DNA from: Desulfobacterales bacterium
GTDB lineage: Bacteria > Desulfobacterota > Desulfobacteria > Desulfobacterales > UBA5852
Assembly: GCA_049366795.1 (NCBI GenBank)
Contig: JBMNCP010000062.1
Location: forward strand, 6,201 to 70,200
DNA: 64,000 bases
Direction of reading: 5' to 3'
Shown here: positions 20,202 through 51,256 of the stretch, piece after piece
Position numbering within the stretch: the stretch's first letter is position 1
Layout: each line of letters starts with the position of its first letter
Notes under the pieces: generated by a model
Databases searched by the model: none
Told to the model about the DNA's origin: nothing
What the model saw: only the letters and a program-made list of their open reading frames with translations
Program-made: the position numbers and the translations under genes

Positions 20202-20693
20202 GAAACCTTCGAAATGTCGAACGTCTACGGGTTGATCAAAGCTCAGGATGCACTGAGGGGTTCAGGCCGGAATCCATGCTTTGGTGTGAACGGCTTTCAT
20301 GATATGCGCCTCTATCTGGTTTTGGGACCGACCGGGACGAAGTAACCAGCAAACGTCGAACAGCGGCAGCGGAAGCAGGAGAAGATTGAGAAGGTCAACC
20401 GGCCTCCTTATTAACAGGTGCGATCGCATCGGTCAATGCCGTGAGGCGATCCCGTCATTCCCCGCCTTCGCCGCGGGGAACCACTTGACTCTCCAAGGGA
20501 ATTGGGGTCTTATAGCCCGGCACGCCTTACTGAACCGGCTGCAGACAGCACATGCCGGCCGATCGGAATCGATGGCATTTTCGATCGGAGAGGATCGGGC
20601 AAGATGGGTCGTTGAGACCCCTCCGACCGCCGATGACTTGTGTTGGGATCGGTCAAGGATTTTCACCGGTACTTCCGAGAAGGGAAATTCCTG

Positions 20694-22610
20694 ATGAGCC
20701 TTCGGAATGTTCATCCGTCCAAGCTGGTTTCGGCCGGCAAGGCGGTGTCGATGGTCAAGCGGGGCAGCCGGGTCTTTCTGGGGACCGGCTGTGGAGAACC
20801 CCAGGAATTGATTCGGGCGATGGTGGCGGATCCTCATATGCAGGACATCATGATTTACCAGATGCTGTCCTCGACGCTGGCCAAGTATGTGGACGATGCC
20901 TCGTTTCTGGCCCGTTTCCAGATCAAGCTCTTTTTCATCAGCAAGGCCATGCGGAAGGCGGCGTTCGAGGGAAAAATCGACTATATCCCCGCATACCTTT
21001 CTCAGATTCCTAGGCTTTTCTCCAGCCAGCGCATCGGTCTCGACGCCGCCTTGATCCAGGTGAGCCCACCCGATCAGTTCGGATATTGCAGCCTCGGTGT
21101 ATCGGTGGATATCACACGATCCGCGATGGAAAACGCCAAGCTCGTGATTGCGCAGGTCAATTCCAGGATGCCCCGTACCTGGGGGGACAGTTTCGTTCAT
21201 ATCGACGAAATCGATTATTTCGTCGTCCACGACGAGCCGCTGGTGGAAATGCAGATGGTCGGCAAGGACAACCAGATTGCCCTGCGCATCGGCCATTTCG
21301 TTTCCCAGCTGGTGGAGGACGGGGCAACGCTTCAAATCGGATTCGGGTATCTGCCGAATGTGATCCTCAAATATCTCGATCGGAAAAAGGACCTGGGGAT
21401 CCACACCCAGCTCATCACCGACGGCCTTCTTCCTCTTTTTGAAAAAGGCGTGATCACCAACAAGAAGAAGAGCCTGTTGCCGGGCCGCGTCGTGGCATCC
21501 CTGTGCATGGGAACCGATCAGCTCTACCGGTTCGTGGACAACAATCCGGCCTTTTATTTCCGATCATCGGAATTCGTCAACGATCCCACGCAGATTGCGC
21601 GCAACGACCATCTGATATCGATCAGCTCGGCATTGGAGGTGGACCTGACAGGGCAGGTCTGTTCGGACTCCATGGGTCACCATTTTTACAGCGGGATCGG
21701 TGACCAGGTGGATTTTCTCAGGGGCAGCGCCATGTCGAAGGGCGGCTTCTCCATCATCGCCCTCCCGTCCACCGCCCAGAACGACCGGGTATCGCGGATC
21801 GTTCCGCATCTGTCCGAGGGGGCGGGGGTCGCCACCACCCGCGCCGACGTGAATTTCATCGTCACGGAATACGGCATCGCGGAGCTCCAGGGCAAGGGAA
21901 TATACCAGCGCGTGATGGAACTTGCCCAGATCGCCCATCCGAAATTCAGGGTGCAGCTGATCGAGGCGGCCAAGAAGCGGCACTACATTTTTCCCGATCA
22001 ACTGCCGCCTTCACAGGAAGATCTTTTATTTTTGGAGGGTTACAAAAACACCTTGATTCTTCGAAACGGCAAGGCCGTGGATTTCAGACCCCTTTTGCCG
22101 TCCGATGAATTCGCCTATCGAAATTTCTTTTATTCCCTTCAAGAAAAAACCATTTATTACCGATTCTTTTACAAGATGAAGCTGTTTTCCCACGAGGTGG
22201 TCCAGAAACAATGGGCCAGCGTGGACTATCGCAAAAACATGTCCATCATCGGCCTGGTTCAGAAGGGCGGGCACCAGGAAATCGTGGCCATCGGAACCTA
22301 TGCACAGGAAACCGAGGAGCGGGCCGAGGTCGCCTTCGTGGTCAGGGAAGATTATCAGAACATGGGCATCGCCTCCTACCTGCTGAAGACCCTGGAGGAA
22401 ATTGCCAGAGAGAACGACTACCGGTATTTTTCGGCATCGGTGCTGAGAGAGAATTCTTCGATGGTGAGAGTGTTCAAGAAAAGATATCCCAAGGCCAGCG
22501 TAACCACCGGGGATGGCGCAGATTTGACGATCCTCATGGACTTTGAGGACGCAGTCGATTCAACGACGGAGAAAATGTCGAACGAGAACGGCGCCGATGC
22601 CGCCGAATGA
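20694..22610 (+). CDS. Acetyl-CoA hydrolase/transferase family domain fused to a GNAT N-acetyltransferase domain
   Basis: The N-terminal ~430 aa (VFLGTGCGEPQELIRAM...SALEVDLTGQV...GIGDQVDF) is acetyl-CoA hydrolase/transferase-like. The C-terminal ~180 aa (VVREDYQNMGIASYLL) is GNAT-like. Start MSLRNVH at 20694. Confidence 0.8.
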   Translation: MSLRNVHPSKLVSAGKAVSMVKRGSRVFLGTGCGEPQELIRAMVADPHMQDIMIYQMLSSTLAKYVDDASFLARFQIKLFFISKAMRKAAFEGKIDYIPAYLSQIPRLFSSQRIGLDAALIQVSPPDQFGYCSLGVSVDITRSAMENAKLVIAQVNSRMPRTWGDSFVHIDEIDYFVVHDEPLVEMQMVGKDNQIALRIGHFVSQLVEDGATLQIGFGYLPNVILKYLDRKKDLGIHTQLITDGLLPLFEKGVITNKKKSLLPGRVVASLCMGTDQLYRFVDNNPAFYFRSSEFVNDPTQIARNDHLISISSALEVDLTGQVCSDSMGHHFYSGIGDQVDFLRGSAMSKGGFSIIALPSTAQNDRVSRIVPHLSEGAGVATTRADVNFIVTEYGIAELQGKGIYQRVMELAQIAHPKFRVQLIEAAKKRHYIFPDQLPPSQEDLLFLEGYKNTLILRNGKAVDFRPLLPSDEFAYRNFFYSLQEKTIYYRFFYKMKLFSHEVVQKQWASVDYRKNMSIIGLVQKGGHQEIVAIGTYAQETEERAEVAFVVREDYQNMGIASYLLKTLEEIARENDYRYFSASVLRENSSMVRVFKKRYPKASVTTGDGADLTILMDFEDAVDSTTEKMSNENGADAAE

Positions 22611-22862
22611 ACGGAACGGGGTGGGGGTTCCCGTCCCAGCGTTGTTGCGAATGTCGATATTTCGGTTGATAACCTTGGAAATTTTCTGATAATCGTTCAG
22701 GCTTGCCGGTTGAAACCGTGAAGCTCCCAAGGGCCGACGGATTGCCGCAGGGGATCCCCGAAGTGCAATATGCCATCGAGCGCCTCCTATCGGACGATTC
22801 ACCCGTTATCAAACGAATGCCCGGATTCAGGGCCAAGATCATCAAATAGGGAGGATGGGCTA

Positions 22863-23264
22863 TTGTCTTACGCACTGGGTCAAAAACAGCTGGATGGCAT
22901 CGATGAGATTCTCAAGAACGATCTCGTCGATATCGGTGTGCACTGTGTTTTCCTGATCGATATGTCCGGAAACATCATCGCCAGCTTGGACGACGGGGAG
23001 AACAAGCACGATATCTATTCTCTTGCCGCCCTGGCTGCCGGGAATTTCGGTGCGGTGAGCGCCATGGCCAAAATCGTGGGCGAAGGAGAATTTTCTCTTT
23101 TATTCCATAAGGGAAAGAAGGAGAACATTCACTTCAGCAAAGTCCTGTCCGAATTCCTGCTGATCACCCTCTTCGGAAACGAGATATCGCTAGGATTTCT
23201 CAGACTGAAAGTGGCCGAGGCTGTTGAAAGAATCAACAAGATTCTCGAACCGATCCAGGGGTAG
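22863..23264 (+). CDS. mglB: Roadblock/LC7 protein, MglB-like
   Basis: 134-aa ORF from TTG 22863, 5 nt downstream of the AGGGAGGA RBS. Roadblock pattern (VHCVFLIDMSGNIIAS...LAAGNFGAVSAM...LLITLF). Immediately upstream of the MglA-like GTPase. Confidence 0.75.
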   Translation: MSYALGQKQLDGIDEILKNDLVDIGVHCVFLIDMSGNIIASLDDGENKHDIYSLAALAAGNFGAVSAMAKIVGEGEFSLLFHKGKKENIHFSKVLSEFLLITLFGNEISLGFLRLKVAEAVERINKILEPIQG

Positions 23265-23325
23265 TCAGCTGACGGACGGTGAGGCGGATCTTTCACCAAT
23301 CCACGTTTAAGACCAGGTGATTTTC

Positions 23326-23931
23326 ATGGCATTCGTCAATCTCAAGAAGAAGGAAGTTCAAGTCAAGATTGTTTATTACGGGCCTGGAAGAGGGGGAAAG
23401 ACGACCAACCTGGAATATATCTACAAAAAGTTCAATGACCGTATCCAGACGGAAATGGTGACCGTCAAGACCCACGGTGATCGTACCCTCTTTTTTGACT
23501 TTCTCCCGTTCGATATCGGCAAGATCAACGGCTATACCGCCAAAATCCAGCTTTATACCGTTCCCGGTCAGGTCAAGTACAATGCGACCCGGCGTCTGGT
23601 GCTGCGCGGGGCGGACGGCATCGTGTTCGTCGCGGATTCCATGGCGGTCCGAAGAGAGAAAAACATCCTCTCCCTGAAGAATCTTCACGAGAATCTGAAA
23701 AACTACAAGAAGAGTATTTTTTCGGTCCCGCTGGTGTTTCAGTACAACAAGATCGATCTGGCCGAGCAGGGAATACCGATTCTGCCGTCGTCTACCATTG
23801 AAAAAGATCTCAACAGCCAGCTGAAAAAGCCCTCCTTCGAGGCAAGCGCCGTGGTAGGGACCAATGTGGTCGCGACGCTAAAGAAAATCATCATGATGAC
23901 GATGGCATCGATTAAGGACGAACTCAAGTAG
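23326..23931 (+). CDS. mglA: MglA-like Ras-superfamily small GTPase
   Basis: KIVYYGPGRGGKTTNL (P-loop), DRTLFFDFLP (switch I with Arg-Thr), LYTVPGQV (switch II Gln), YNKIDL (NKxD). Close match to my recollection of Myxococcus MglA. Confidence 0.88.
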   Translation: MAFVNLKKKEVQVKIVYYGPGRGGKTTNLEYIYKKFNDRIQTEMVTVKTHGDRTLFFDFLPFDIGKINGYTAKIQLYTVPGQVKYNATRRLVLRGADGIVFVADSMAVRREKNILSLKNLHENLKNYKKSIFSVPLVFQYNKIDLAEQGIPILPSSTIEKDLNSQLKKPSFEASAVVGTNVVATLKKIIMMTMASIKDELK

Positions 23932-23942
23932 GAGGTGAGCCG

Positions 23943-24683
23943 TTGGCCGACGAGGGTAAGGCAAAAACCGTTGACACCGAAGTCAAGAGCCGACTGGATG
24001 TCCTCTTCCCGGACGAACTGCCGGTGGGGTCGGCCGATAGCGGAATGAATTCACTGAAAGGTCTGGACCCGCTCGAAGAGCTGCGAAACCTGGTCATGTC
24101 CATCGAGTGGGAAATCACGGACGAGGTGATGGCCCGGTTCGTGGATCAGATCGAAGCGCTCAAGGCAAAATACGGCAAGGACAGAATTCTCGTCATGTTT
24201 CTCCAGCTCCTGGGATCGCTCGGGTTGTATGTCCGATCCTACAAGGCCAAGGCCCACCCGAGTTCCTTCAGGTTGATTCATTCGGTCTACTCCGGGTTCG
24301 ACAAGGTCATGAGCTCTGATCATCTGGACGCCTCCGAAAAGAAAAAACTCCTTTATGTGGAACTCAACAAGTACAAAGAGCTAAAGGAGCAGATCGACCA
24401 GGCGAAAACCCATTCCATGAAGGATCGAAAAGAGGTCATGCCGAACGACGTTCGGGCGGCGAAGGAAGGACCGGTCGGCGAGGAGACGGTCCCCGGCGTG
24501 GCAGCCTTCGAGCCGAAGGCGGTGACGGAAACACCATCGCCCGGCAAAACATCCGAATACGGAAGTGCGGATATTCAGAAGGTGGTCGATGCGATCGAAG
24601 ATATGAAAATTTCCTTCAAAAAGGAGCTTGAAGAGATCCGCAAGGAAATTCAAAAGCTCCGGAAGATTGAGTCGTCATCCTGA
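23943..24683 (+). CDS. Hypothetical acidic/coiled-coil protein of the mglA cluster
   Basis: 246-aa ORF (TTG start) 12 nt after mglA. No recognisable domain. Lys/Glu-rich helical C-terminus. Confidence 0.6.
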   Translation: MADEGKAKTVDTEVKSRLDVLFPDELPVGSADSGMNSLKGLDPLEELRNLVMSIEWEITDEVMARFVDQIEALKAKYGKDRILVMFLQLLGSLGLYVRSYKAKAHPSSFRLIHSVYSGFDKVMSSDHLDASEKKKLLYVELNKYKELKEQIDQAKTHSMKDRKEVMPNDVRAAKEGPVGEETVPGVAAFEPKAVTETPSPGKTSEYGSADIQKVVDAIEDMKISFKKELEEIRKEIQKLRKIESSS

Positions 24684-24747
24684 AAACGTTTCGACGGATC
24701 ATCGCGCTGATGCCGCATTCGCGGAAACGGCGCCCCGGGAGGTGGTG

Positions 24748-25221
24748 ATGGTTTTGGGTTCGGGTGATATTTCGCGAATGGTTTTCAAGCCGGTCGTGAG
24801 GGGAGACCTCGGCAACTTTTCCCTTGACGGGCACAGTTTGAGTCTACTGATGGCGCTCGACGGCAAGAAGAGCCTGGGAACCATTGCTCAGAAAACCGGG
24901 TTCAGCCCCGAGGAAATCGGCAGCATCGCCAATCGCTTGATTCAACTCAAACTGATCGAGCAGGTGCAGCAGCAGACGGTTGCGGCTGCCGATGCCGATT
25001 TTTTCAAACGCCTGACAGACGAACTTTCCCTGGCCATCGGGCCGCTGGCGGAGGTGCTGATCGAGGACGGAGTCGAGGATTTGGGTCATTCCCTCAAGGC
25101 CTTTCCAGCTCATCGCGTCGCGGATCTGGTTCAACTTCTCGCCGAGGAGATCCAGAGAGACGAAAAACGGACGGCGTTCACCCAAAAAATGCTGCAGATC
25201 ATTCAGAAAAAGGGCTACTGA
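24748..25221 (+). CDS. Hypothetical protein (possible winged-helix N-terminus)
   Basis: ATG 24748 preceded by GGGAGGTGG. 157 aa. No confident domain call. Confidence 0.55.
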   Translation: MVLGSGDISRMVFKPVVRGDLGNFSLDGHSLSLLMALDGKKSLGTIAQKTGFSPEEIGSIANRLIQLKLIEQVQQQTVAAADADFFKRLTDELSLAIGPLAEVLIEDGVEDLGHSLKAFPAHRVADLVQLLAEEIQRDEKRTAFTQKMLQIIQKKGY

Positions 25222-25331
25222 TTCGAATCCGTCCGGTCGGGCGGCGGGGAGTGCCCGATCATCGGCGGCCGACCAGCTGTAGCGGAACAACTTATTGCGG
25301 AATTTCTATCTGACGACAAAGGAGCTTCGCC

Positions 25332-26729
25332 ATGATCGTTCAATGTGACAACTGCGGGAAAAAATACCGGGTGGAACCCGATAAGATAAAAGGCCGGGAG
25401 GCCCGATTCAAGTGCAAGTCCTGCAACCAGTTGGTAACCGTTCTGAAGCCCGCCCCGGAACCCGAACTGGAATTTGCCCTCCTTGAAGAATCCGAAGCCG
25501 GGGTCGGCATCGTAACGTCGAGTCCGCCATCCGAGCCGAATCCGGGTTTCACATTTCCCGAGGCCGACCTCTCCGCCGAACTGGAAACCGTGACGGCCGA
25601 ACCCGAGGTGATAAGTGTCGACGAGCCGTCGAAAAACAAGGCCGAGGCCCCGGTCCGGAAAAAGGGCATCGGGCTGACCGGAAAAGTGATTCTTCTGATG
25701 CTCCTGGTGAGCCTCGTTCCACTGGGTGTTTTCTCCTTCATCACCATTCAGCAGGTCCAGGATCGGATTGTCCACAATCAGGAACAGTTGGGCGCCCAGG
25801 TGACCGAAGGTCTCACTGCCCAGGTGGATGAGTGGATCGACAAGAACCTGCGGGTGCTCAAAGCCCTGGCGGACATGCCGGCCATCCAGAGTATGAACCG
25901 GCTCAGCCAGGAAACGCTGCTCAAAATCGTCCACGATCAGTACCCTTGGATGTACCTCGTCTTTACGACCGACAGCCTGGGAATGAACGTTGCCCGGAAC
26001 GACGGGAACGAACTGACCGATTATTCGGATCGGCAATACGTGAAGGACGTCATATCCGGAAAGGCGGTCGCCTGGCAGACGCTGATCGGCAAGACTTCCA
26101 AAAAGCCGGCGCTGGTGATGGCCGTTCCGATTCAAAGAAATGGCGGTACGGTCGGCGTCATGGCGGCCGCCATGACGATCGATGACATTTCCAAAAGAAT
26201 CGCCAACTGGCGGCAGGGGCAGACCGGTTTCGCCTATCTGGTGGATGAGAAGGGCAAAGTGGTTGCCCACCAGGTGGACGCCTATGTGCAGGAACAGAGA
26301 TCGCTTTCGACCCATCCTCTCATTTCGGCCTTCAGAAACGGCTCCAAGGGGGTGATCGAGTTTACGACCGATGAGGGGCACCAAGCCATCGGTCAGGCCC
26401 GAAACACCGAATACGGGTGGACGCTCGCCATCCAGCAAAGCAAAAGCGAGGCTTTTGCCGCGTTGAGCCGGGCGCGGACCTTTGCATTGACCCTCCTGGC
26501 TCTGACCGTGGTCGTCGTTGTCCTGATCGCCCTGTTTTCCAGCCGAAGCATCGTCAATCCGATCAAGGCGCTGACAGATGCCGCCAACCGAATCAGCGTC
26601 GGGGATCTGGATGTGGAAATCCAGAACCAGTCCAGGGATGAAATCGGAGAACTCGCCGATGCGGTCACACGTATGCAGGACAGCATCCGTCTGTCCATAG
26701 CGAGGCTGCGCCGCAGGCGACGGAAGTGA
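25332..26729 (+). CDS. Zinc-ribbon (MJ0042-type) - Cache - HAMP sensor without output domain
   Basis: N-terminus MIVQCDNCGKKYRV...FKCKSCNQLV (CxxC...CxxC). TM, Cache-like periplasmic region, second TM, then HAMP (IVNPIKALTDAANRISVGDLDVEI...DEIGELADAVTRM). The protein ends about 25 aa after HAMP. Confidence 0.75.
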   Translation: MIVQCDNCGKKYRVEPDKIKGREARFKCKSCNQLVTVLKPAPEPELEFALLEESEAGVGIVTSSPPSEPNPGFTFPEADLSAELETVTAEPEVISVDEPSKNKAEAPVRKKGIGLTGKVILLMLLVSLVPLGVFSFITIQQVQDRIVHNQEQLGAQVTEGLTAQVDEWIDKNLRVLKALADMPAIQSMNRLSQETLLKIVHDQYPWMYLVFTTDSLGMNVARNDGNELTDYSDRQYVKDVISGKAVAWQTLIGKTSKKPALVMAVPIQRNGGTVGVMAAAMTIDDISKRIANWRQGQTGFAYLVDEKGKVVAHQVDAYVQEQRSLSTHPLISAFRNGSKGVIEFTTDEGHQAIGQARNTEYGWTLAIQQSKSEAFAALSRARTFALTLLALTVVVVVLIALFSSRSIVNPIKALTDAANRISVGDLDVEIQNQSRDEIGELADAVTRMQDSIRLSIARLRRRRRK

Positions 26730-26878
26730 AGACCCAAGCCGAGAATCGACTGCATTGACCGCCTGCAAACCGGAGGCTGACGGCTGAAAACCGCATGCCC
26801 CCGGCTGCAGGCGACAGCCTCCCGAGGAATGATCCACTGTCGGGTCGAACACCGTTGAAGGAGTCATAGCGCATTGCC

Positions 26879-27868
26879 ATGATTATCACGCCGAAGGAAA
26901 AGCCGGTCGTCCAGAAACTGAACAGCTATTATATTCGCATTCCAAAACTGATCGAACACTTCCAGGGTGAAATCGGGTCCGGGGTCGTGCATTTTACCTC
27001 TGCGATGGCAGAGGGCATGATTTTCTTCGACAAGGACGAGCTGCTGAACGGCGCTCTCCATGGCAGACAGACTTCCCTCACCGGCTCCGAGGCGGTTCAA
27101 ACGCTGTTGAATGTCGATGAGACTGCCAGTTACAGCTTATCGGTCTACAGCATCAGCCCGGACGAGATCTACTTCTGGTCGAGCATTCCGGATGCCAAGC
27201 TCATTTACAAGGATTTGAGCACCGAATTCACCGATCTGGAAGGTCTCATCAAGAAAATGCGCACCGAGGAGCTCACCGGCGTCATCGAAGTCGTTTTGGG
27301 TGACGGATCGGAAGGAGGGCTGCTTCTGCTCAACAACGGCAGCGTGTTTGGAGGCTCCTATTCCTGGGCCGAGGGCGGACGTTCGGACAGCGGGAACGAC
27401 CAGGAAATTCTTTTACGGAAATCCAAGGCCGTCGGAGGCATATTTCATGTCAGCCGCCTGCCTTCGCGGGGTGGGGCCGACACCGGAACCCGGGGCGAAC
27501 CGGGAGAAACGACCGGAGCTTCGAAGCGCGTGGTGACCTCCCTCGAAGAATTGCTGGGCATACTGGAACGCGTCGCCCAAAGCCGGAAAAGCGTCGCGGG
27601 AGGATTCCAGACCGCCCTCAACCGAAAATTCGTGGAAAAAGCGGACAAATATCTGTTCCTGGATCCTTTCGCCGCGGAATTCAAGTATGCCAACCGCAGC
27701 ATTTCCCTTGCCGCCGATATCTCCGACCCGGAACTGTGGAACGGCGTCGTGGAGTCCGTTGCCGAGCTCGCCGACGAACTGGGGCTGATGAATGTCTTCC
27801 AGGAGAACCTCGTGGGGTGGAAGAAGAAGTATCATAGCGAGCTGTCGATCTTCGGATTCGGAATTTGA
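26879..27868 (+). CDS. Hypothetical protein with two DUF4388-like repeats
   Basis: Two segments fit the DUF4388 pattern: GVVHFTSAMAEGMIFFDKDELLNGA...GSEAVQTLL and GVIEVVLGDGSEGGLLLLNNGSVFGG. Low-stringency call made by eye. Confidence 0.5.
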   Translation: MIITPKEKPVVQKLNSYYIRIPKLIEHFQGEIGSGVVHFTSAMAEGMIFFDKDELLNGALHGRQTSLTGSEAVQTLLNVDETASYSLSVYSISPDEIYFWSSIPDAKLIYKDLSTEFTDLEGLIKKMRTEELTGVIEVVLGDGSEGGLLLLNNGSVFGGSYSWAEGGRSDSGNDQEILLRKSKAVGGIFHVSRLPSRGGADTGTRGEPGETTGASKRVVTSLEELLGILERVAQSRKSVAGGFQTALNRKFVEKADKYLFLDPFAAEFKYANRSISLAADISDPELWNGVVESVAELADELGLMNVFQENLVGWKKKYHSELSIFGFGI

Positions 27869-28869
27869 AAGTGATTGCCAATCTTCCCGAATTTGTCGGC
27901 CAGCTGCCGGCTGCGATCTACCGCGTGACCATGGAAGGGAAGATCATCTACTGCAACAACGCCTACGCCCGGTTGTTCGGATTTGACACGGCTCGGGAAC
28001 TGATCGGCTCTCCGGTCATACGGCTCTATCGCAACAAGACGGATCGCGGCCATCTGTTGCAGGCGCTGCTTCAGAGGGGTTTGGTGATCGATACGCCGAT
28101 GGCCTTTCTCCGGAAGGACGGAATGCCGCTCTGGTGCGCGGTTACCGCCAAGGCGGTTTTGGACGACGACGGCATGGTCGTCTTTCTGGACGGCATGCTG
28201 CGGGATATCACCGGTGAAATCGAAGAGCGAGGACCGGGCCTGCCGGGTTCGACCGGGATGGCTTCCGAGGCCATGGCCACCTTTTTGCTGGATGTTCAGG
28301 GTCGATTCCTCGAAGCGAACGAAGCCGGGCACCGGCTTCTCGGTTCGGCAAAAGGGGAGTTGGACGGCAGGGCGATTACCGACTTTTTCCCTGAATCGGA
28401 TCGAGATCTCTTCCTTTTGATTCTGGGAGATATCCGAAAGATGGGGAGGGAAGAGGTCGTTCTGCGATTGAAAAACCAAAGCGGGGTGAACCGCTTTGCC
28501 GAAATCACGGCCATTTTCGTAAGAACCGAGGGCCGGGCGCACCATGTCAAGGTGCTGGCACGCGATGTCACCGAGCAGATACGACAGGCCGAGGAACGTC
28601 GCAACATCGAAAAATTCCAGGGCGTTCTGGAAATGGCCGGCGCCGTGGCCCACCGGTTCAATCAGCCGCTCACCGTGGTGACCAACGTGATCAACGAACT
28701 GTTGAGCGAAATGACGCCGGCGGACCGGTTTTATGGCAGCATTCAGAAAGCCCAGGACCAGATCAAGAGGCTCAATGAAATTACCACCAAGATCGGCAAT
28801 ATCAAAAAATATGCCGCAACGGATTACGTGGCCGGCGTCAAAATCGTCGACATCGACCAGGCTTCCTGA
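27865..28869 (+). CDS. PAS-PAS-HisKA-like protein lacking an HATPase_c domain
   Basis: Two PAS-like segments (AIYRVTMEGKIIYCNNAYARLFG; FLLDVQGRFLEANEAGHRLLG) followed by the H-box AGAVAHRFNQPLTVV. Only ~70 aa follow, and I see no N/G1/G2 boxes. Start is TTG 27865 or GTG 27871. Confidence 0.7.
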   Translation: MKVIANLPEFVGQLPAAIYRVTMEGKIIYCNNAYARLFGFDTARELIGSPVIRLYRNKTDRGHLLQALLQRGLVIDTPMAFLRKDGMPLWCAVTAKAVLDDDGMVVFLDGMLRDITGEIEERGPGLPGSTGMASEAMATFLLDVQGRFLEANEAGHRLLGSAKGELDGRAITDFFPESDRDLFLLILGDIRKMGREEVVLRLKNQSGVNRFAEITAIFVRTEGRAHHVKVLARDVTEQIRQAEERRNIEKFQGVLEMAGAVAHRFNQPLTVVTNVINELLSEMTPADRFYGSIQKAQDQIKRLNEITTKIGNIKKYAATDYVAGVKIVDIDQAS

Positions 28870-28892
28870 GATGACGCCCGGAGGGAATCGTC

Positions 28893-29930
28893 ATGATTCG
28901 TAAAGTGCTTTTTGTGGATGACGACCAGGAAATGCTCCTGGCGCTCAAAGAAGGGCTTGAAAAGTATGGCGATACCTTTTCCATCCTGCTGGCGCGCGAT
29001 GGGATGGAGGCCGTCGAGAGACTTCGAAAGGAAAACGTATCGCTCGTCGTAACCGATCTCAAGATGCCGCGGATGGACGGTTTCAATCTACTTGCCCACA
29101 TCATGGAGCATGCTCCGGACATTCCGGTGATTATCATTACCGGGTACAGCACGCCCGAAATGAAGCGCCTCGCCAGGGAAGGCGGCGCCGTCGGATACAT
29201 CAGCAAGCCGTTCCTGATCGAGGATCTTGCCCACCTGGTCATCAAGACGATCCGAAAGGAATCGGAAGGCGGAACGCTTCACAGCGTCAGCTCGGGTATG
29301 TTCCTTCAGCTGATGGAAATGGAGGAGAAGACCTGCACCGTCCGACTGGTGGAAAAATCCACCGAACGCGGCGGAGTTCTGTTTTTCCGGAACGGCAAAC
29401 TGCTGGATGCCCGCTGCGGGCAGCTCCAGGGACTGGATGCGGCCTATGAGATCTTTTCATGGGACCAGGTCAATCTTTCCATCAGAAATGACTGCCCCCA
29501 GGTTGAAAATCGGATCAACAGCGACTTGCAGCCCATCATCCTGGAGGCCGCACGCCGAAAGGACGAGCGTGACGCGAACGAGGAGAGGCCGGCGGACACG
29601 ACAGCGCTGCTGGATGTCGAGGCGGTAGAGGAGGAGCCTTCGGCCGAGGCGGGCACGCAGCGACTGAGGGATCTGCTCGTGAAAAAGGTCGGAGAGCATT
29701 GCGGCGTGGAAGACATCAGCAACGATCCGGAATACGACGAACTGAGCTTCAAGCTGACGCTCCTGGGCGGTTTGTTTCAATTCGGTTCCTTGAAGGCCGG
29801 CTACTTCGATCGCGGAGAAAAAACCGACATCATTCTGCTGCCCGGCAACCCGTCCACGATTATATCCGTCAACCCCAAATGCCCGCGGGACAAGATCCTG
29901 CGTGTATTGGCTGAACACAACAGGATTTGA
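28893..29930 (+). CDS. Response regulator receiver domain fused to DUF4388
   Basis: REC: VLFVDDDQ, VVTDLKMPRMDG (acceptor Asp), ISKPF. DUF4388: GTLHSVSSGMFLQLMEMEEKTCTVRL...GVLFFRNGKLLDARCGQLQGLDAAYEIFSW. Confidence 0.85.
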   Translation: MIRKVLFVDDDQEMLLALKEGLEKYGDTFSILLARDGMEAVERLRKENVSLVVTDLKMPRMDGFNLLAHIMEHAPDIPVIIITGYSTPEMKRLAREGGAVGYISKPFLIEDLAHLVIKTIRKESEGGTLHSVSSGMFLQLMEMEEKTCTVRLVEKSTERGGVLFFRNGKLLDARCGQLQGLDAAYEIFSWDQVNLSIRNDCPQVENRINSDLQPIILEAARRKDERDANEERPADTTALLDVEAVEEEPSAEAGTQRLRDLLVKKVGEHCGVEDISNDPEYDELSFKLTLLGGLFQFGSLKAGYFDRGEKTDIILLPGNPSTIISVNPKCPRDKILRVLAEHNRI

Positions 29931-30286
29931 TCACCATGAAAGAGCTCTTCAGCAACCTGCTCAATATGAAGGGTGTCCGCGGCCTGGTGCTGTTTTCAGC
30001 CGAGGGAGAGATCCTTTTCGATGCGTTTCCGGGCGCCGAAGAAGCGGAGGTCCGGAGTTTTGGAAACTGGGAGGCGGTTTCGGCCGCTTTGGCTGGGGTC
30101 AGGGAGGCGGATCTGCTGTTCCAAAACGGCAGGTTTTATATCCGGAGAACGGGAATCGGTATCCTGCTCGTCGTCATCGATCTGTCCCTATCCGTGGCCA
30201 TGGTGAAATTGAACTGTGATATAATTCTGCCGAATTTGAAACAGGTTTCCAGCGGTAAGGGGCTCCGGCGCTTTTTCCGAAAATGA
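29927..30286 (+). CDS. Second roadblock/LC7-like small protein
   Basis: LLNMKGVRGLVLFSAEGEILFDAF...GILLVVIDLSLSVAMVKLN fits the roadblock fold pattern. Overlaps the upstream stop. An alternative ATG lies at 29936. Confidence 0.6.
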   Translation: MITMKELFSNLLNMKGVRGLVLFSAEGEILFDAFPGAEEAEVRSFGNWEAVSAALAGVREADLLFQNGRFYIRRTGIGILLVVIDLSLSVAMVKLNCDIILPNLKQVSSGKGLRRFFRK

Positions 30287-30409
30287 TCGGATCCACAGCG
30301 GCCGGTGCCATATCGCTCGAGTCCGAACCGGTCGAAATTCCATAAATTCTGCCAAGGAATGCCTGGCTGCTGACGGCAGACCTTTGTACCGGCAGCCGAG
30401 AGTGCTGAC

Positions 30410-32797
30410 ATGACAAAAGTGCAAAAAACGCTGAAGTCGGATGCAGACGCCAAGATCAACGAGGCGGAAGTCTGCTTTACCATGGGACTCTTCGACGAAG
30501 CCGCCGCCATTCTGGAGCAGGTGCTGAAGGATTTTCCGACGCTGGATGCGGAAAAAAAACAATCCATCGAGAATCGGCTGAAAATCGTTCGGGAAAAGAT
30601 CGCGGAAACCGAAAAGGATGAAGCCGGAAGCGTTTCCTCGGAGGAGATCTCCATGCTGAGGAAAACGCTCTCCGGCCAGGAAGACGCTCCCGCGGTGCTC
30701 GACAGCGCTTCCGCCTTCAAGGACCTGGGCCTGTTTGATGAAGCGGTGTCGGAGTTCGAGAAACTGATCTTTCTCGGATATCCGGAACTGGACCGGGTTG
30801 TCCAGGAAGTATCCGCGTGTCTCGTCAAGATCCATTCGCCAGCCGATCTGTATGATCGCATCATGAAGATTGCCTGTGACCAGCGGCTCGAAAAGCCGCG
30901 GATGGCGCAGGTAAAATATTATTTCGGGCAGGAAATGGAACGGCGGGACAATCGGGACCTGGCGATGGATTTGTATGAATCCGCCCTGAAGGATTCGCCG
31001 GAGAACACCGAAATCAAGAAGCGACTCGAAGGATTGAGGACCTCGCTGAGCTCCGGTTCGAAATACGATTTCCTGCTCAGAAACGACCTGGTCAACACCG
31101 AACAGCTCCAGCGGGCCGCAACGCTTGCGAAGCAAACCAAAAAGAGCGTCGAGCACGTTCTGATGAATTCCTTCGGCGTCAAGCGGGAGGACATCGGAAA
31201 ATCCTTCTCCCAATTTTACGGATGCCCCTTCCGGCAGCACGACCCGGACCTGCCGACGCCTTACGAACTTCTGGGGAGCTTGAAAAAGGCCTTTCTTCTC
31301 AATGAACTGTGGGTTCCGCTCAATTGGGGCAAGGACGGCGTCGAAATCCTGGTGGACAACCCCCGGGATCTCAACAAGACCGACAATATCCGGGCCTTGA
31401 TGAAGACCAGCAAGATTCATTTTTCCGTTGCGACCAAGGAGGATATCGAGCAGTACATCGCCCGGTTCTTTTCAGCGGACCAGCAGCTCGAGGCCGTTGC
31501 GGGAGGCGGGGAAGGATTCGACAACTTCGACGAAATCCTGGATGTCTCGTTCGAAGAGGAGGAGGACCATCATGACGACCTCGATGAGATGGACGAGAGC
31601 TCGAGCAAGGTCGTCAAGCTTGTGGATCAGTGCCTGATCGCGGCCTACCGGAAGAATGCCTCGGACATTCATGTCGAGCCTCAGCCCCAGACCAAGACTA
31701 CCAACATCCGCTTCCGGATGGACGGCGTCTGCCAGGATTACATAAAAGTCCCCAATTCCATGGCCAGGGGCATCCTTTCCCGGATCAAGATCATGTCCGG
31801 TCTGGACATTGCGGAACGGCGGCTGCCTCAGGACGGCAAGATCAAGTTCAAACGAAAGGGCGTGCCCCCTTTCGAACTTCGTGTGGCGACGCTTCCGACC
31901 GCGGGCGGCTACGAGGATTGCGTGCTACGGATCCTGGCCACGGCCGGTGTCATGAAACTGGACGACATGGGGCTGAGCGAACGAAACATCAGCGTCATGA
32001 AAAACATCCTGACCAAACCCTACGGGCTCGTCCTCGTAGTGGGGCCCACCGGTTCCGGCAAGACCACCACCCTGCACGCGGGACTGGGGTATATCAACAA
32101 ACCGGGCATCAAGATCTGGACGGCCGAAGACCCTGTGGAAATCACCCAGACGGGGCTCCGCCAGGTCGAGGTCAAACCCAAGATCGGTCTGGATTTCGCG
32201 CGTGTCATGCGAGCCTTTCTGCGTGCGGATCCCGACGTGATCATGATTGGTGAGATGCGCGACGAGGAGACCGCGTCCATCGGCGTCGAAGCATCGCTCA
32301 CCGGGCACCTGGTATTCTCCACGCTGCACACCAACAGCGCGCCCGAAACGATCACCCGTCTGCTCGACATGGGATTGAATCCTCTCAACTTCTCCGACGC
32401 CTTCCTGATGGTGCTGGCGCAGCGCCTGGTCAGGCGGCTTTGCGCCTGCAAGAAGGCGTATCATCCCACGGCGGAGGAATTCGATGCCATCGTCCAGGAT
32501 TTCGGCAAGTCCGATTTTCCCCGAACCGGCATCGAATACAGCAAGGATCTCGTCCTGTATCGCCCCGGCAGCTGCGAGAAGTGTTCAGGGACCGGTTACA
32601 AGGGCCGGATGGGCATCCACGAGCTCATGGAAGGAACGCCGACCGTCAAGAAGCTCATCAAGCAGGCCGCCGATACGGACGTCTTGTTTCGAACCGCTAT
32701 CGACGAGGGGATGTCCACGTTGAAGCAGGACGGCATCGTGAAGGTGTTCCAGGGCCATACCGACCTTGCGGAAGTGCGGCGGGTTTGCATTACCTGA
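30410..32797 (+). CDS. GspE/PilB-family secretion ATPase with a long TPR-like N-terminal extension
   Basis: Walker A GPTGSGKTTT, Asp box/Walker B DPDVIMIGEMRDEETA, His box TGHLVFSTLHTNSA, tetracysteine CACK...CEKCSGTGYKGR. A T2SSE_N-like segment lies upstream. The first ~250 aa carry repeated GLFDEA helical-repeat motifs. Confidence 0.88.
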   Translation: MTKVQKTLKSDADAKINEAEVCFTMGLFDEAAAILEQVLKDFPTLDAEKKQSIENRLKIVREKIAETEKDEAGSVSSEEISMLRKTLSGQEDAPAVLDSASAFKDLGLFDEAVSEFEKLIFLGYPELDRVVQEVSACLVKIHSPADLYDRIMKIACDQRLEKPRMAQVKYYFGQEMERRDNRDLAMDLYESALKDSPENTEIKKRLEGLRTSLSSGSKYDFLLRNDLVNTEQLQRAATLAKQTKKSVEHVLMNSFGVKREDIGKSFSQFYGCPFRQHDPDLPTPYELLGSLKKAFLLNELWVPLNWGKDGVEILVDNPRDLNKTDNIRALMKTSKIHFSVATKEDIEQYIARFFSADQQLEAVAGGGEGFDNFDEILDVSFEEEEDHHDDLDEMDESSSKVVKLVDQCLIAAYRKNASDIHVEPQPQTKTTNIRFRMDGVCQDYIKVPNSMARGILSRIKIMSGLDIAERRLPQDGKIKFKRKGVPPFELRVATLPTAGGYEDCVLRILATAGVMKLDDMGLSERNISVMKNILTKPYGLVLVVGPTGSGKTTTLHAGLGYINKPGIKIWTAEDPVEITQTGLRQVEVKPKIGLDFARVMRAFLRADPDVIMIGEMRDEETASIGVEASLTGHLVFSTLHTNSAPETITRLLDMGLNPLNFSDAFLMVLAQRLVRRLCACKKAYHPTAEEFDAIVQDFGKSDFPRTGIEYSKDLVLYRPGSCEKCSGTGYKGRMGIHELMEGTPTVKKLIKQAADTDVLFRTAIDEGMSTLKQDGIVKVFQGHTDLAEVRRVCIT

Positions 32798-33506: not shown

Positions 33507-33572
33507 CGAAAGGGCGTTCGACCCCATATCCCGCACCGGGGCTTGCACGGGAGGAGGCCATGCCTGATTCCG

Positions 33573-34484
33573 ATGAATGAAACCGCTCACCGACGACGTG
33601 CTCGAAAGGACTATGCGGTCCTTTTCCTAAAGGGGGTGTGCATGGGCTCCGCGGATGTGGTCCCCGGGGTTTCCGGTGGCACCATGGCGCTGATACTGGG
33701 CATTTACGAAGAATTGATTCGCTCCGTGCGCTCGATCGACATCCGGTTCTTCCGGCGGCTCGCCGCAGGCCGTCTCCGGGATGCCGCCGCAGCGGTGGCA
33801 TGGCCGTTTCTGTTCGCCCTCGGCGCGGGTATTCTCACCGCCATTCTCACCCTGGCCCGGGGGATCAGCTGGGCTCTCGTCCATCACGCCGTTTTGATCT
33901 GGTCTTTCTTTTTCGGACTGGTGCTCGCGTCGGTCTGGTCCGTTGGGAAGGAATTGAACCGGTGGGACCCGACGGCCGTTCTGTGGGCTCTCCTCGGAGG
34001 GGCGTCCGCGTACTGGATCGTGGGGCTTGTCCCCGTCGAAACTCCGAATGCCGCATGGTTTCTTTTTTTGAGCGGCTCCGTTGCGATCTGTGCAATGATC
34101 CTGCCCGGCATTTCCGGCTCATTCATCCTGGTGCTGCTCGGCAAGTACCATTACGTGCTCGATGCGGTGAATCAAAGGGATCTCGCAAGCCTGATCGTTT
34201 TCGCGGCAGGGGCGGCCGTCGGGCTGCTCTCATTTGTCCGCTTGCTCAATTGGCTGCTGGAGCGTTACCGGGATCCCACGCTGGCCTTATTGGCCGGCCT
34301 GATGGTGGGCTCTCTGAGAAAGATCTGGCCTTGGAAGACGGCAGCAGCCGGCATGCTCCCCGTGAATGTCTTTCCCGCCTCGTTCGATTCCGAGGTGGCT
34401 GCCGCGGTCGGATTGATGGTGGCGGGCATTGCCGCTGTCTGTCTCATGAACGCCGCGGCCGGGCGCATCAAAAACCGCTCGTAG
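33573..34484 (+). CDS. DUF368 family membrane protein
   Basis: GVCMGSADVVPGVSGGTMALILGIYEELI is the DUF368 signature. Polytopic membrane protein. The start is uncertain (33543 TTG or 33573 ATG). Confidence 0.8.
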   Translation: MNETAHRRRARKDYAVLFLKGVCMGSADVVPGVSGGTMALILGIYEELIRSVRSIDIRFFRRLAAGRLRDAAAAVAWPFLFALGAGILTAILTLARGISWALVHHAVLIWSFFFGLVLASVWSVGKELNRWDPTAVLWALLGGASAYWIVGLVPVETPNAAWFLFLSGSVAICAMILPGISGSFILVLLGKYHYVLDAVNQRDLASLIVFAAGAAVGLLSFVRLLNWLLERYRDPTLALLAGLMVGSLRKIWPWKTAAAGMLPVNVFPASFDSEVAAAVGLMVAGIAAVCLMNAAAGRIKNRS

Positions 34485-34500
34485 AGAACGCCAATCCGGT

Positions 34501-35070
34501 TCATCGGTGATGGGATTGTCCGTCATCCGGAAGCTCGATGAATCGATGGGAAACCCCGCCGTTTCGTATTTCCAGGATGGCGACGGTGGGAAGCAGGCCA
34601 AATCTCGGAAAGCTTGCGCTGCCCGGATTGAGGTAGAATACACCGGAATCCCTCTCCGCTTCTGGCCGGTGGGTATGTCCGGAGATCACCACCTGAATCC
34701 CGGCCGCCAGCGGGTCCAGGTCGATCCGTGAACGGTCGTGGAGAATGAAGATCAGAACTCCTCCGACCTCGATCAGTTCAGCCGATTTCAGGGCGGCTGC
34801 CCATCCTCCGGTGTCCATGTTTCCTTTGACGGCCGCAACAGGCGCGATCCGCCTGACCGACTCGAGCAGCCCCGGCTTGTCGATGTCGCCGGCGTGGAGG
34901 ATAAGGTCCATGCCGTGAAACACCTCTGACACCCCCTGGGGAAGATAGCCGTGCGTGTCCGAGATGATACCGAGGCGCAACGTCTGCCTTCCATCGAAGG
35001 TGTTCAACCGGGTCCCTTCTTCGAGGATGCTTCGAAGGGTTTTGTCGCTTGGCGATGTTTCAGACGCCAT
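34501..35070 (-). CDS. YfcE/MJ0936-type metallophosphoesterase
   Basis: Motifs ISDTHG, AGDIDKP, GNMD and SGHTHRP. Confidence 0.85.
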   Translation of the reverse strand: MASETSPSDKTLRSILEEGTRLNTFDGRQTLRLGIISDTHGYLPQGVSEVFHGMDLILHAGDIDKPGLLESVRRIAPVAAVKGNMDTGGWAAALKSAELIEVGGVLIFILHDRSRIDLDPLAAGIQVVISGHTHRPEAERDSGVFYLNPGSASFPRFGLLPTVAILEIRNGGVSHRFIELPDDGQSHHR

Positions 35071-35082
35071 GACCCGCTTTTC

Positions 35083-35808
35083 CTATCGCAATCGTCTGCA
35101 TTTTTTCCGCTTTCCGGTTTTCCGCGGTGGTTTCCGGGGGATATGGAGCCTGCCTTTCAGGGTCTGCGTACTGTGGACGATTTTTGCGCGAATCGATTTC
35201 CGGTATTCCACGATGGCGCCGTAGACCAGGAAATAGGCAACCACCGACAGGGGAAGGCCGACCACGACACCCCCGACCAGGAGCGTCCAAAGAATCTCCG
35301 GGCCCAGCTTCATCAGGGCGATCAAGGTGTCGATATCGAATTCCACGGGCAGGGAATAGACGGTCGACCTGCCAAGTATCTTTGCCCCGGTGATGTAGGT
35401 GATACCATAAAGGATCGGTGCGGAGAGCGGATTGGATACCCATACGGAGATGCCGGCGGCCAGCTTGTTCCACTTGAACAGGGCGGCGAGAAAAATGGCA
35501 ATCGCCATGTGCAGTCCCATGAAGGGCGTAAAGCCGATCAAAACACCCAGGGCGAAACCGTAGGCGATCTCTTTCGGATTGCCCCGGATTTTTAGAAATC
35601 GCGCATATGCATTGCGAATCACCTTGAACCGGCCTTTAGGGTCGGCTGCTTCACATTCGTCATCCGGGGGAGGAAAGTCCGGTGCTCCACTTGGCGGTTC
35701 CGGCGGAGGACTTGGATCGAGGGGGATCTCGGGGGGATCCGGATAATTTTCGGACCTGACAGCGGGGCTCAATGCGTTTATAGAAGGAACAACAAGCTTC
35801 ACAATCAC
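35083..35808 (-). CDS. DUF2062 family membrane protein
   Basis: GNPKEIAYGFALGVLIGFTPFMGLHMAIAIFLAALFKWNKLAAG matches the DUF2062 core. GTG start. Pro-rich N-terminal extension. Confidence 0.75.
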   Translation of the reverse strand: MIVKLVVPSINALSPAVRSENYPDPPEIPLDPSPPPEPPSGAPDFPPPDDECEAADPKGRFKVIRNAYARFLKIRGNPKEIAYGFALGVLIGFTPFMGLHMAIAIFLAALFKWNKLAAGISVWVSNPLSAPILYGITYITGAKILGRSTVYSLPVEFDIDTLIALMKLGPEILWTLLVGGVVVGLPLSVVAYFLVYGAIVEYRKSIRAKIVHSTQTLKGRLHIPRKPPRKTGKRKKCRRLR

Positions 35809-36228
35809 GGTCCGTGGCGGCGTTGGATCATCATCATTGTACTTGCCGGTTTCGATTCCGTTTCCTCGTGGACAACGGTGTCGTGCGGGGTTTCAACCGG
35901 CAGGGCATTTAACCATCGAATACGGGTCTTGTAAAGATATCGGTATCCGAAGGCTTCCCCTTGACTGCTTCTTTTACAATAGCGGCGTGCAAGGGTTTTC
36001 AATCGAATTCGTTTTCGGTCTCCCGGCTTGACAGGGACCGCGTTCGATACGAGACTCATAAATGGCGTGACCGCCGCGCCGCAGCGGGCGCCGTCAAAAG
36101 CTAACCTGTCCACTGTCGGTTCGGCCGGCAAGAAGGTTCGAGTGAATGGGCCGCCGCCCATCGCCACGGATGCCGGAGCTCGGTTCGGCCGAGGCGGCGC
36201 ATTTCGCTAAACCAAGGAGAAGTCTGCC

Positions 36229-36753
36229 ATGATGCTCAAAGGAAAAAAAGTCGTGATTCTGGTCGAAAACATGGTGAACGATCTTGAGTTCTGGTACCCG
36301 TACTACCGTCTCAAGGAAGAAGGCTGCGAAGTCGAAACGGTCGGAACCGGTTCGTCCGACCAATATGCGGGCAAGGCGGGTATTGCGGTTTCGGTCGACA
36401 GGGATGCAAAAGCCGTCGACGTCTCGAAAATCGACGGGATCATCATTCCCGGAGGATACGCCCCGGACATCATGCGGCGATATCCCGAAATGGTGCAGCT
36501 CGTTCGAGACGCCTTCGACTCCGGAAAAGTCGTTGCCGCCATCTGCCATGCCGGCTGGATGCTTGCCTCGGCAAAGATATTGAAGGGGCGAACGGTCACC
36601 TCCTTCTTTGCGATCCGGGACGACGTGGTTCACGCAGGAGCGGAATGGGTCGATCGGGAAGTGGTCGTGGATGGGAACCTGATCACGAGCCGGAAGCCCG
36701 ATGACCTGCCCGCTTTCATGAAGGCGGTCATCGCCGCGTTGCAAAAGGCCTGA
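36229..36753 (+). CDS. DJ-1/PfpI family protein (type 1 glutamine amidotransferase-like)
   Basis: KKVVILVENMVNDLEF, IIPGGYAPD, and the nucleophile elbow VAAICHAGWML. Confidence 0.85.
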   Translation: MMLKGKKVVILVENMVNDLEFWYPYYRLKEEGCEVETVGTGSSDQYAGKAGIAVSVDRDAKAVDVSKIDGIIIPGGYAPDIMRRYPEMVQLVRDAFDSGKVVAAICHAGWMLASAKILKGRTVTSFFAIRDDVVHAGAEWVDREVVVDGNLITSRKPDDLPAFMKAVIAALQKA

Positions 36754-36910
36754 AGCGAAGTCCCGACCCAGGGCGTCGGGATCCTGCGGGGAGGCATCAC
36801 CCGGAACGTCCATTCTCTCCGGTGGAATTCCCGGGGTGGATGTGGTAGTAAAATTCCCGGTCGTTCGTCCTCGAATCCGATAACCCCATCTTCCAAGGAG
36901 ATCAAAGCGA

Positions 36911-51232: not shown

Positions 51233-51256
51233 GATCTCAGCGGGTCGATCGTCGGG

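Follow-up and report, generated by a model that had tools for sequence, protein, structure and literature searches.

We analyzed a 64,000-nucleotide stretch of a Desulfobacterales genome (contig JBMNCP010000062.1, positions 6,201 to 70,200; hereafter the window) and describe within it a cluster of ten genes, g1 to g10, that places an MglB/MglA small-GTPase pair together with a membrane sensor, PATAN-type regulators and a PilB-type ATPase carrying a tetratricopeptide repeat (TPR) domain. These ten genes are a real, strongly conserved, operon-like functional module of sulfate-reducing Desulfobacterales. As to what the module does, we lean with modest confidence toward an Mgl-type polarity or activation module in which receptor and phosphorelay input would be passed to a dedicated PilB-type ATPase, the type that serves extension of type IV filaments, with the machine itself encoded elsewhere. 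The module would most likely determine the place and time at which this type IV pilus-like machine becomes active.

The evidence for a module lies in its conservation. A scan seeded with the GTPase, using one genome per species, gave 80 loci, nearly all labeled Desulfobacterales or related Desulfobacterota and including Desulfobacteraceae, Desulfosarcina, Desulfococcus, Desulfonema, Desulfatiglandaceae, Desulfosalsimonadaceae and Desulfatibacillum. Gene order was counted in the 54 loci with at least 9.5 kb 3' of the GTPase gene. All ten genes stood in order in 19 of these and only g7 was missing in another 16, so that the order, with the latter included, is conserved in 35/54; the ATPase is carried by 40/54. 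The other arrangements lacked g4, g5 and g7 (4/54), ended in a TPR-only last gene without g6 and g7 (7/54), or were reduced or cut short (8/54). In the reverse direction, metagenomes were searched with an alignment of the g10 TPR domain, and every counted locus (those with at least 7.5 kb upstream) held g1 to g10 complete and in the same order (19/19). The order recurs across families at 72-95% GTPase identity, as against 30-60% identity for g3, g6 and g9. Flanking genes vary among related loci while the cluster persists, and when all open reading frames (ORFs) of the 80 genome loci were clustered, no other gene family recurred beside it. A preliminary description of this DNA had named two signs that the adjacency might be incidental, namely a gene order that is lost in relatives and orthologous ATPases housed in pil or gsp operons. 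Instead, the order is kept in both sets of loci, and the ATPase orthologs always lie in this cluster and never in a pil or gsp operon (96 loci).

Variant clusters bear on how the parts are joined. In seven loci of our scan (L042, L043, L044, L048, L051, L054 and L065; e.g. L044:14551-15582), g6 and g7 are missing, and the cluster ends with the gene for a protein of 343 amino acids (aa) whose first ~200 residues share 34-40% identity with the TPR domain of g10. The last ~115 residues carry the motifs RxxxR (RREHR) and (D/N)xSxxG (NYSSHG), with small variations among the seven loci, and their sole Pfam match is PilZ, which stays below its cut-off of 22.5 bits (17-18 bits, E 0.004-0.01). PilB and PilZ domains both belong to type IV pilus control, and the PilZ-like domain of these TPR-PilZ proteins is predicted to be a pilus-type receptor domain for cyclic di-GMP (c-di-GMP). 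Since the same TPR domain is joined either to PilB or to a PilZ-like domain, the cluster-specific part of g10 would be the TPR domain and not the ATPase. The TPR family is narrow. A search of 1.84 billion representative proteins gave only 117 matches at E <= 1e-10, which with few exceptions align at their own N-terminus, and, fragments aside, the lengths of the proteins that carry it cluster near 795 aa and 320-345 aa. A different variant occurs in a cultured relative, Desulfatibacillum alkenivorans DSM 16219 (L069:5512-14400), which keeps mglB-mglA-g3 without a TPR or ATPase gene. The order there starts with a REC-PATAN protein of 892 aa and an ORF of 130 aa, and the mglB, mglA and g3 genes that come next are framed by two complete histidine kinases, a small HisKA-HATPase kinase before them and a GAF-PAS-HK-REC hybrid kinase after them. 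Because this genome has the mgl core and a REC-PATAN protein without the ATPase, the GTPase core and the PATAN regulator are older than their link to the ATPase.

Features of the cluster, with positions in the window
Feature	Description	Position	Strand	Basis or remark
g1	MglB (Roadblock/LC7; predicted GTPase-activating protein), 133 aa	22863..23264	+	Pfam Robl_LC7; present in 79/80 genome loci
g2	Group-1 MglA small GTPase, 201 aa	23326..23931	+	Full-length structure matches, motifs
g3	Cluster-specific protein: RLDxLF motif, helical bundle (43-163), disordered linker, long C-terminal helix (209-245)	23943..24683	+	
g4	Small winged-helix protein, 157 aa	24748..25221	+	Winged helix-turn-helix matches
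g5	Membrane sensor: cytoplasmic Zn-ribbon, ~75-residue stretch, transmembrane segment, periplasmic dCache, transmembrane segment, HAMP	25332..26729	+	Pfam
g6	Two PATAN-like alpha/beta repeats (residues 4-95, 104-198) and helical C-terminal domain	26879..27868	+	
g7	PAS-PAS-DHp (HisKA-like), accessory	27865..28869	+	In 21/54 long loci
g8	REC-PATAN (DUF4388) response regulator; C-terminal region poorly conserved	28893..29930	+	
g9	Small protein, probably Roadblock/longin-like, 116-119 aa, translationally coupled to g8	29927..30286	+	
g10, N-terminal part	Cluster-specific TPR domain, residues 1-215	30410..31054	+	Several TPR families sub-threshold or borderline
g10, C-terminal part	Full-length PilB-type ATPase (MshEN/N1, N2, ATPase core)	31055..32797	+	
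Promoter candidate	Sigma-70-like, TTGATA-16-GATAAT	22666..22693	+	250-bp gap 5' of g1; consensus scan, 10/12 matches

Components and their predicted contacts

On their motifs and profile matches, g1 and g2 are a bona fide MglB/MglA pair with catalytic residues intact, as the preliminary description had proposed. Over its full length g2 matches Thermus MglA (3t12, E 2e-51) and Myxococcus xanthus MglA (E 1e-48), and the closest solved relatives of g1 are M. xanthus MglB (E 2e-20) and Thermus MglB (E 2e-9). The Robl_LC7 score of g1 is 28.4 bits against a cut-off of 23, and the NCBIfam equivalog for Thermus-type MglB gives 51.9 bits against 200, which puts g1 outside that narrow equivalog. Its start codon, TTG at 22863, follows a GGGAGGA ribosome-binding site and fits the ortholog lengths of mostly 130-134 aa. 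The two genes are 61 bp apart, and the mglB-mglA pair is present in 79/80 loci. Among the GTPase hallmarks noted earlier, the P-loop GPGRGGKT, DRTLFFDF with its intrinsic Arg and TVPGQ are 92-100% conserved in 77 orthologs; in YNKID the N, K and D are kept in all 77, but the I in only 13%. Group-1 MglA proteins, as delimited by Wuichet and Sogaard-Andersen, combine a GxxxxGKT P-loop, TVPGQ with Thr in place of Asp in G3 and a catalytic Gln, an intrinsic Arg, an NKxD G4 motif and an adjacent mglB (PMC4316618). The same P-loop, TVPGQ, intrinsic Arg, canonical NKxD and adjacent mglB are found for g2, which has more than 8000 relatives in the database, the top 120 of them at 82-97% identity. GTPase-activating protein (GAP) activity of g1 on MglA is predicted, and g1 would switch MglA off.

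The last gene encodes the ATPase. Residues 215-795 of g10 align end to end, the N-terminal MshEN/GspE_N domain included, with the PilB structures of M. xanthus (3jc8, E 5e-104) and Geobacter (E 3e-103 to 1e-102) and with Thermus PilF (E 4e-99), and Pfam reports T2SSE (E 7e-115), MshEN (E 1.2e-11) and TPR. The Walker A and B motifs, Asp box, His box and Cys motif are at least 95% conserved in 40 orthologs, the Cys motif being CxC in the window's lineage and CxxC in most orthologs. The curated NCBIfam equivalogs are missed, both PilB (TIGR02538, 492.7 vs 675.65 bits) and GspE (TIGR02533, 462.7 vs 630.25 bits), and because of this g10 appears to be PilB-type rather than PilB. Binding of c-di-GMP by its N1 domain is not claimed here, as the NCBIfam MshE-related motif is matched only at E 0.007 and looks degenerate.

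In Myxococcus, the TPR protein SgmX mediates the action of MglA on PilB (PMC7519303, PMC7668184, PMC11580455). MglA-GTP binds the C-terminal TPRs of SgmX, bringing PilB to the pole, and how SgmX achieves this is still unknown (PMC11580455). A TPR domain fused to PilB and encoded with mglBA is what would be expected if that domain were an MglA effector surface. By analogy, MglA-GTP would bind the TPR domain of g10 and so bring the ATPase to a particular site or switch it on there, and in the variant clusters the same TPR domain would deliver the PilZ-type c-di-GMP receptor.

Input at the membrane would enter through g5. The earlier call of a zinc-ribbon-Cache-HAMP sensor is borne out by Pfam, where Zn_ribbon_4, dCache_1 and HAMP all score above cut-off; the protein is without an output or kinase domain. 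Its zinc-ribbon cysteines are C5, C8, C28 and C31, and the closest solved relative of residues 4-41 is the zinc ribbon (ZnR) of M. xanthus GltJ/AgmX (7zok, E 6e-4). Across 48 orthologs, conservation is limited to the Zn-ribbon and HAMP, the periplasmic part being variable, and the ~75 unconserved residues that follow the Zn-ribbon we take to be a flexible linker. The GltJ ZnR binds the C-terminal helix of MglB and raises GAP efficiency about fourfold, its adjoining flexible linker binds MglA-GTP, and ZitP, related to the GltJ ZnR, is a pilus regulator (PMC11135422). In like manner, g5 may present its Zn-ribbon and linker to MglB/MglA, and signals sensed in the periplasm would then tilt the GTPase cycle at the membrane.

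Further input may come through the PATAN proteins. For g8, both domains of the proposed REC-DUF4388 response regulator are above the Pfam cut-off (Response_reg, E 3.8e-26; DUF4388, E 3.9e-13). The phospho-acceptor D55 is present in 48/54 orthologs and K105 in 54/54, and g8 looks like a phosphorylatable response regulator. D55 is replaced by Glu at five loci (L019, L021, L022, L024 and L025), all of which are without g7, and by Val in L026. An Asp-to-Glu change at the REC acceptor is usually taken as a mimic of phosphorylation. The two DUF4388-like repeats ascribed to g6 hold in part: hhalign supports a repeat within the protein (probability 86%, E 5e-6), but the window protein matches no Pfam or NCBIfam family. 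Compared with the PATAN domain of g8 by hhalign, g6 gives E 2e-4 to 1.5e-3, and DUF4388 is the commonest sub-threshold match of its orthologs (18/49, best E 4.9e-5). The AlphaFold2 model of g6 has a mean pLDDT of 80.7; a Foldseek search with this fold among solved structures returned only sliding-clamp-like noise (TM ~0.12) and nothing meaningful. The gene is present in 39/40 loci that carry the ATPase and in 0/7 TPR-PilZ loci. No relationship was detected by hhalign among the C-termini of g6 and g8, g3 and g4, or between these and Roadblock. In Synechocystis, PilB1 is a binding partner of PATAN-REC regulators, and the same study notes PATAN together with GspE_N domains and near mglA/mglB genes (bioRxiv 10.1101/2021.06.11.447907); MglA/MglB genes adjoining PATAN genes are likewise on record (PMC4316618). 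By analogy with Synechocystis PilB1 and its regulators, g8 and g6 may contact the ATPase, and g8 would be set by phosphorylation.

The partners of g8 in phosphotransfer and adaptor roles would be g7 and g9. The PAS-PAS-HisKA architecture proposed for g7 stands as far as its two PAS domains are concerned (PAS_9, E 1.6e-25), while HisKA falls below its cut-off (21.2 vs 26.9 bits), though the H-box His is conserved. Both the H-box AHRFNQPLT and a C-terminal DYVxGxKIVDID are conserved in 23 orthologs, and the Pfam scan found no HATPase (ATP-binding kinase) domain in g7. This kinase-less PAS-DHp protein might serve as an accessory phosphotransfer or phosphatase partner. At its C-terminus (window 28780-28869), where the ATP-binding domain of a kinase would normally follow the DHp helices, a strongly conserved KYxxxDYVxGxKIVDIDxAS motif is found instead. 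As for g9, proposed earlier as a second roadblock protein, dynein roadblock and coatomer-zeta longin chains are the top matches in a profile search of solved structures (weak, E ~0.3), but Robl_LC7 is sub-threshold (E 1.5e-3, 18.7 bits against a cut-off of 23), as it also is in 22/52 orthologs with such matches. An hhalign comparison with g1 is co-linear over 96 columns and weak (E 0.05). The protein is probably Roadblock or longin-like, with a probable start at ATG 29936, given that M4 is nearly invariant in orthologs. A relationship with MglB or MglC was sought in PDB and neither appears, only the dynein roadblock and longin chains. By analogy, g9 could be an MglC-like Roadblock adaptor joining g8 to MglB.

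The two proteins left as unknown in the preliminary description can now be described as a helical-bundle protein (g3) and a winged-helix protein (g4); g3, g4 and g6 are protein families without annotation. g3 matches no Pfam or NCBIfam family and has only 190 homologs, the few with an organism name being Desulfobacterales. It follows mglA directly in 78/80 loci, and its AlphaFold2 model has a pLDDT of mostly 83-94 over residues 41-150. We considered an Hpt phosphotransfer protein and rejected it: CheA P1/Hpt is the top Foldseek match, but at E 0.06 and with TM 0.31 (query) and 0.53-0.55 (target), and the invariant H105 lies in KAHP and not in an HxxKG-type helix, so g3 is taken as a generic helical bundle. 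At the N-terminus of g3 (window 23943-24020), a nearly invariant RLDxLF is separated from the folded domain by a disordered stretch and looks like a docking peptide. For g4, sub-threshold winged helix-turn-helix matches occur in 48/48 orthologs scanned (HTH_47, best E 6e-6; MarR_2, best E 3.6e-7), and the top profile matches among solved structures are regulators of this type (E 0.08-0.3). Its probable start, ATG 24748, leaves no overlap with g3 and agrees with the length of most of its 56 orthologs (156-158 aa). An assignment to DUF742 (CvnC) was discarded, this family not being among the Pfam matches of g4 or its orthologs. g3 and g4 may be obligatory partners in the module.

Target of the ATPase and rival readings

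Several observations weigh against a type IV filament as the target of this module. Pilin, PilC, PilM-Q and PilT genes are absent from the cluster, from the tested ORFs of the window and from up to 10 kb around the related loci, and the 96 related loci hold no further ATPase of the PilB/PilT type within 10 kb. The preliminary description had likewise seen no pilus or secretion genes in the cluster, and the tested ORFs elsewhere in the window are housekeeping and lipid-synthesis genes. PilB-like ATPases work on a PilC/PilM-type platform; with g10 being a complete PilB homolog over residues 215-795, MshEN/GspE_N included, such a platform would be encoded elsewhere, and the self-contained system first proposed is unlikely. 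By its scores below both equivalog cut-offs, g10 would be a diverged paralog, and its N1 motif (KYDxLLR...) appears to be without the Arg, Gly and Gln of what we take to be the MshEN c-di-GMP consensus. A histidine-kinase ATP-binding domain is absent from the whole cluster by Pfam, which bears on the source of phosphate for g8. The PATAN call of g6, the Roadblock call of g9 and the PilZ call of the variant proteins are all sub-threshold, and the co-occurrence of g6 with the ATPase may reflect one or two clades and few evolutionary events. What the parts are, and that they are kept together as one unit, is observed; all contacts between the parts, as well as the pilus target, are what we infer. 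Convergence of the module on a secretion-type ATPase, another element of the preliminary description, is only partly retained, as the ATPase belongs to the conserved module but is swapped for a PilZ-like domain in seven related clusters.

Some of these observations would suit a module of the same make-up whose ATPase powers another machine (type II secretion-like, another type IV filament or an unrecognized partner) or is a free-standing hexameric motor or scaffold that targets the cluster's own proteins. The failure of g10 to reach either the PilB or the GspE cut-off, the lack of machinery genes nearby in the 96 loci, and the presence of cluster-specific g3, g4 and g6 without known function all point in that direction. 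We nevertheless consider it rather unlikely, given that the closest solved relatives of g10 are PilB proteins aligned over their entire length with the N1 domain, that the alternative partner of the TPR domain resembles a pilus-associated type of regulator, and that all known precedents based on MglA, PATAN or ZnR concern pili or surface motility. A receptor-to-small-G-protein pathway with a mechanical output strikes us as improbable; here the Cache receptor would need no kinase and would couple directly to MglA/MglB by way of its Zn-ribbon and linker, MglA-GTP would switch the PilB-type motor directly through the TPR domain, and the motor, together with g3, g4 and g6, would act on a target other than a classical pilus.

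The output could also be mainly transcriptional, as in a conservon-like G-protein pathway in which the sensor, the Roadblock proteins and g4 control MglA, g4 binds DNA and the ATPase is one target among several. The set of sensor, Roadblock, small winged-helix-like protein and MglA-family GTPase does recall CvnA-D (PMC4316618; bioRxiv 10.1101/2025.07.03.663114), the winged-helix matches extend to all g4 orthologs scanned, and in Desulfatibacillum the mglB-mglA-g3 core stands with full histidine kinases and without the ATPase/TPR gene. Yet g2 is a group-1 MglA with a canonical NKxD and not of the group-2 CvnD type, DUF742 is missing from the Pfam matches of g4 and its orthologs, the sensor g5 has no kinase domain, and g4 is absent from some clusters that keep the ATPase, which makes this pathway seem distinctly improbable to us. 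Finally, an ordinary mglBA pair might merely adjoin unrelated two-component genes and an orphan ATPase gene, and the gaps of 110-150 bp before g5, g6 and g10 could indeed hold internal promoters. Such an incidental adjacency we treat as excluded, because the order recurs across families in which g3, g6 and g9 have diverged far more than the GTPase, the search that starts from the TPR domain recovers the same association, and the flanking genes change while the cluster stays.

Layout and neighborhood

All ten ORFs lie on the + strand, packed into 22863-32797, the place given in the preliminary description, and the TTGA overlaps at 27865 and 29927 that it mentioned are present. From g1 to g10 the spacings are 61, 11, 64 (with the revised g4 start), 110, 149, -4, 23, -4 and 123 bp. 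The gene order it listed is upheld for the domains of g1, g2, g5, g8 and g10, but the calls for g6, the HisKA of g7 and g9 are sub-threshold. The sigma-70-like site 5' of g1 (see the table) is a candidate only, as the site counts of a promoter and terminator scan of the region were not above those of shuffled controls.

The 5' neighbors of the cluster are EF-G, an Smr protein and an acetyl-CoA hydrolase/GNAT fusion. The last of these, an acetyl-CoA hydrolase/transferase fused to a GNAT domain (window 20640-22610, + strand), lies directly 5' of the cluster and is kept there in 19/80 related genome loci. On the 3' side, rsmG is the next gene, as stated earlier. Beyond it (window 33543-37026), the tested ORFs 33638-34510 (+), 34951-35595 (+) and 36094-37026 (-) gave no Pfam match at E <= 0.001; they are either wrong frames or uncharacterized proteins. 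Further along, a G+C-rich block (0.63-0.69; window 46498-58261, - strand) encodes a 2334-aa multidomain synthase with two ketoacyl-synthase and two FabA matches, and also an AMP-binding enzyme, an alpha/beta hydrolase and a 3-beta-HSD/epimerase-type reductase. Judged from these domains, it is by our reading a lipid gene cluster of the polyunsaturated fatty acid (PUFA)-synthase or olefin type. In addition, a 482-aa ORF (window 60494-61942, - strand) joins a diadenylate cyclase (DAC) domain to a YbbR-like domain on its C-terminal side. Since such domains are usually encoded by separate genes, cdaA and cdaR, the ORF may be a fusion or an ORF-calling artifact.

Significance and relation to known systems

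In the library that could be searched, we found no description of this operon, of PilB fused to a TPR domain, of the TPR-PilZ form or of an mgl operon with a receptor made up of Zn-ribbon, Cache and HAMP, and no paper was found that joins MglA with Desulfobacterales genera. The statement in the preliminary description that this is not a described system therefore needs to be narrowed: the operon and the TPR-PilB fusion were not found in the literature, but each ingredient and several of the pairwise links are published. If the proposed pathway is true, it offers testable pairs with few defined partners (MglA-GTP with TPR-PilB, PATAN with PilB, Zn-ribbon with MglB, and Roadblock with REC). It would also mean that abundant marine sulfate reducers, relatives of Desulfosarcina, Desulfococcus and Desulfonema, have signal-controlled, polarized surface appendages, which would bear on aggregation, syntrophic consortia and sediment colonization. 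The cluster is of relevance to research on bacterial polarity and pili, where the pathway is only partly understood in Myxococcus.

Among known systems, the actinobacterial conservons (CvnA-D, Mfp) resemble the cluster in that one operon encodes an MglA-family GTPase along with a Roadblock protein, a membrane sensor and a further small protein with an accessory role. They differ in having a group-2 GTPase with an atypical G4, a histidine-kinase-like CvnA and DUF742, and in lacking PATAN, REC and the ATPase; the present cluster has no HATPase and no DUF742 match, and its GTPase is group-1-like. Cyanobacterial PatA-type regulators such as PixG and PixE, which bind the pilus motor PilB1, are similar in that REC and PATAN are functionally linked to a PilB with a GspE_N/MshEN N-terminus. 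However, they occur in Tax/Pix chemotaxis-like operons with CheA/MCP-type proteins and without MglA/MglB, whereas here the regulator stands with MglA/MglB, and a second, REC-less double-PATAN protein (g6) is found in addition. The sensor g5 is comparable to GltJ (AgmX) and to Caulobacter ZitP, with an N-terminal cytoplasmic four-Cys Zn-ribbon of identical spacing, an unconserved linker of ~75 residues and a membrane anchor. GltJ continues with GYF and belongs to the Glt envelope complex, whereas g5 continues with Cache and HAMP, and GYF was not detected in it.

The closest parallels are drawn with the Myxococcus polarity module. There, as here, a group-1 MglA with intrinsic Arg and Gln stands side by side with the GAP MglB, and the adjoining response regulator g8 and small Roadblock-like g9 are reminiscent of RomR and MglC, although g8 carries a PATAN domain, unlike the output region of RomR. 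No RomX, RomY, FrzS or SopA homolog was identified. As with SgmX, a TPR module is placed between MglA and a PilB-type ATPase. SgmX is a separate protein with 14 TPRs, whereas here a TPR domain of ~215 residues forms part of the ATPase protein or of a protein with a PilZ-like domain. In contrast to the Myxococcus genome, in which the components are scattered, all of them are gathered here in one operon. The cluster may represent a compact, one-operon version of the pathway from MglA to the pilus motor, with the TPR adaptor fused to the ATPase, and one that is probably more direct than its counterpart in Myxococcus.

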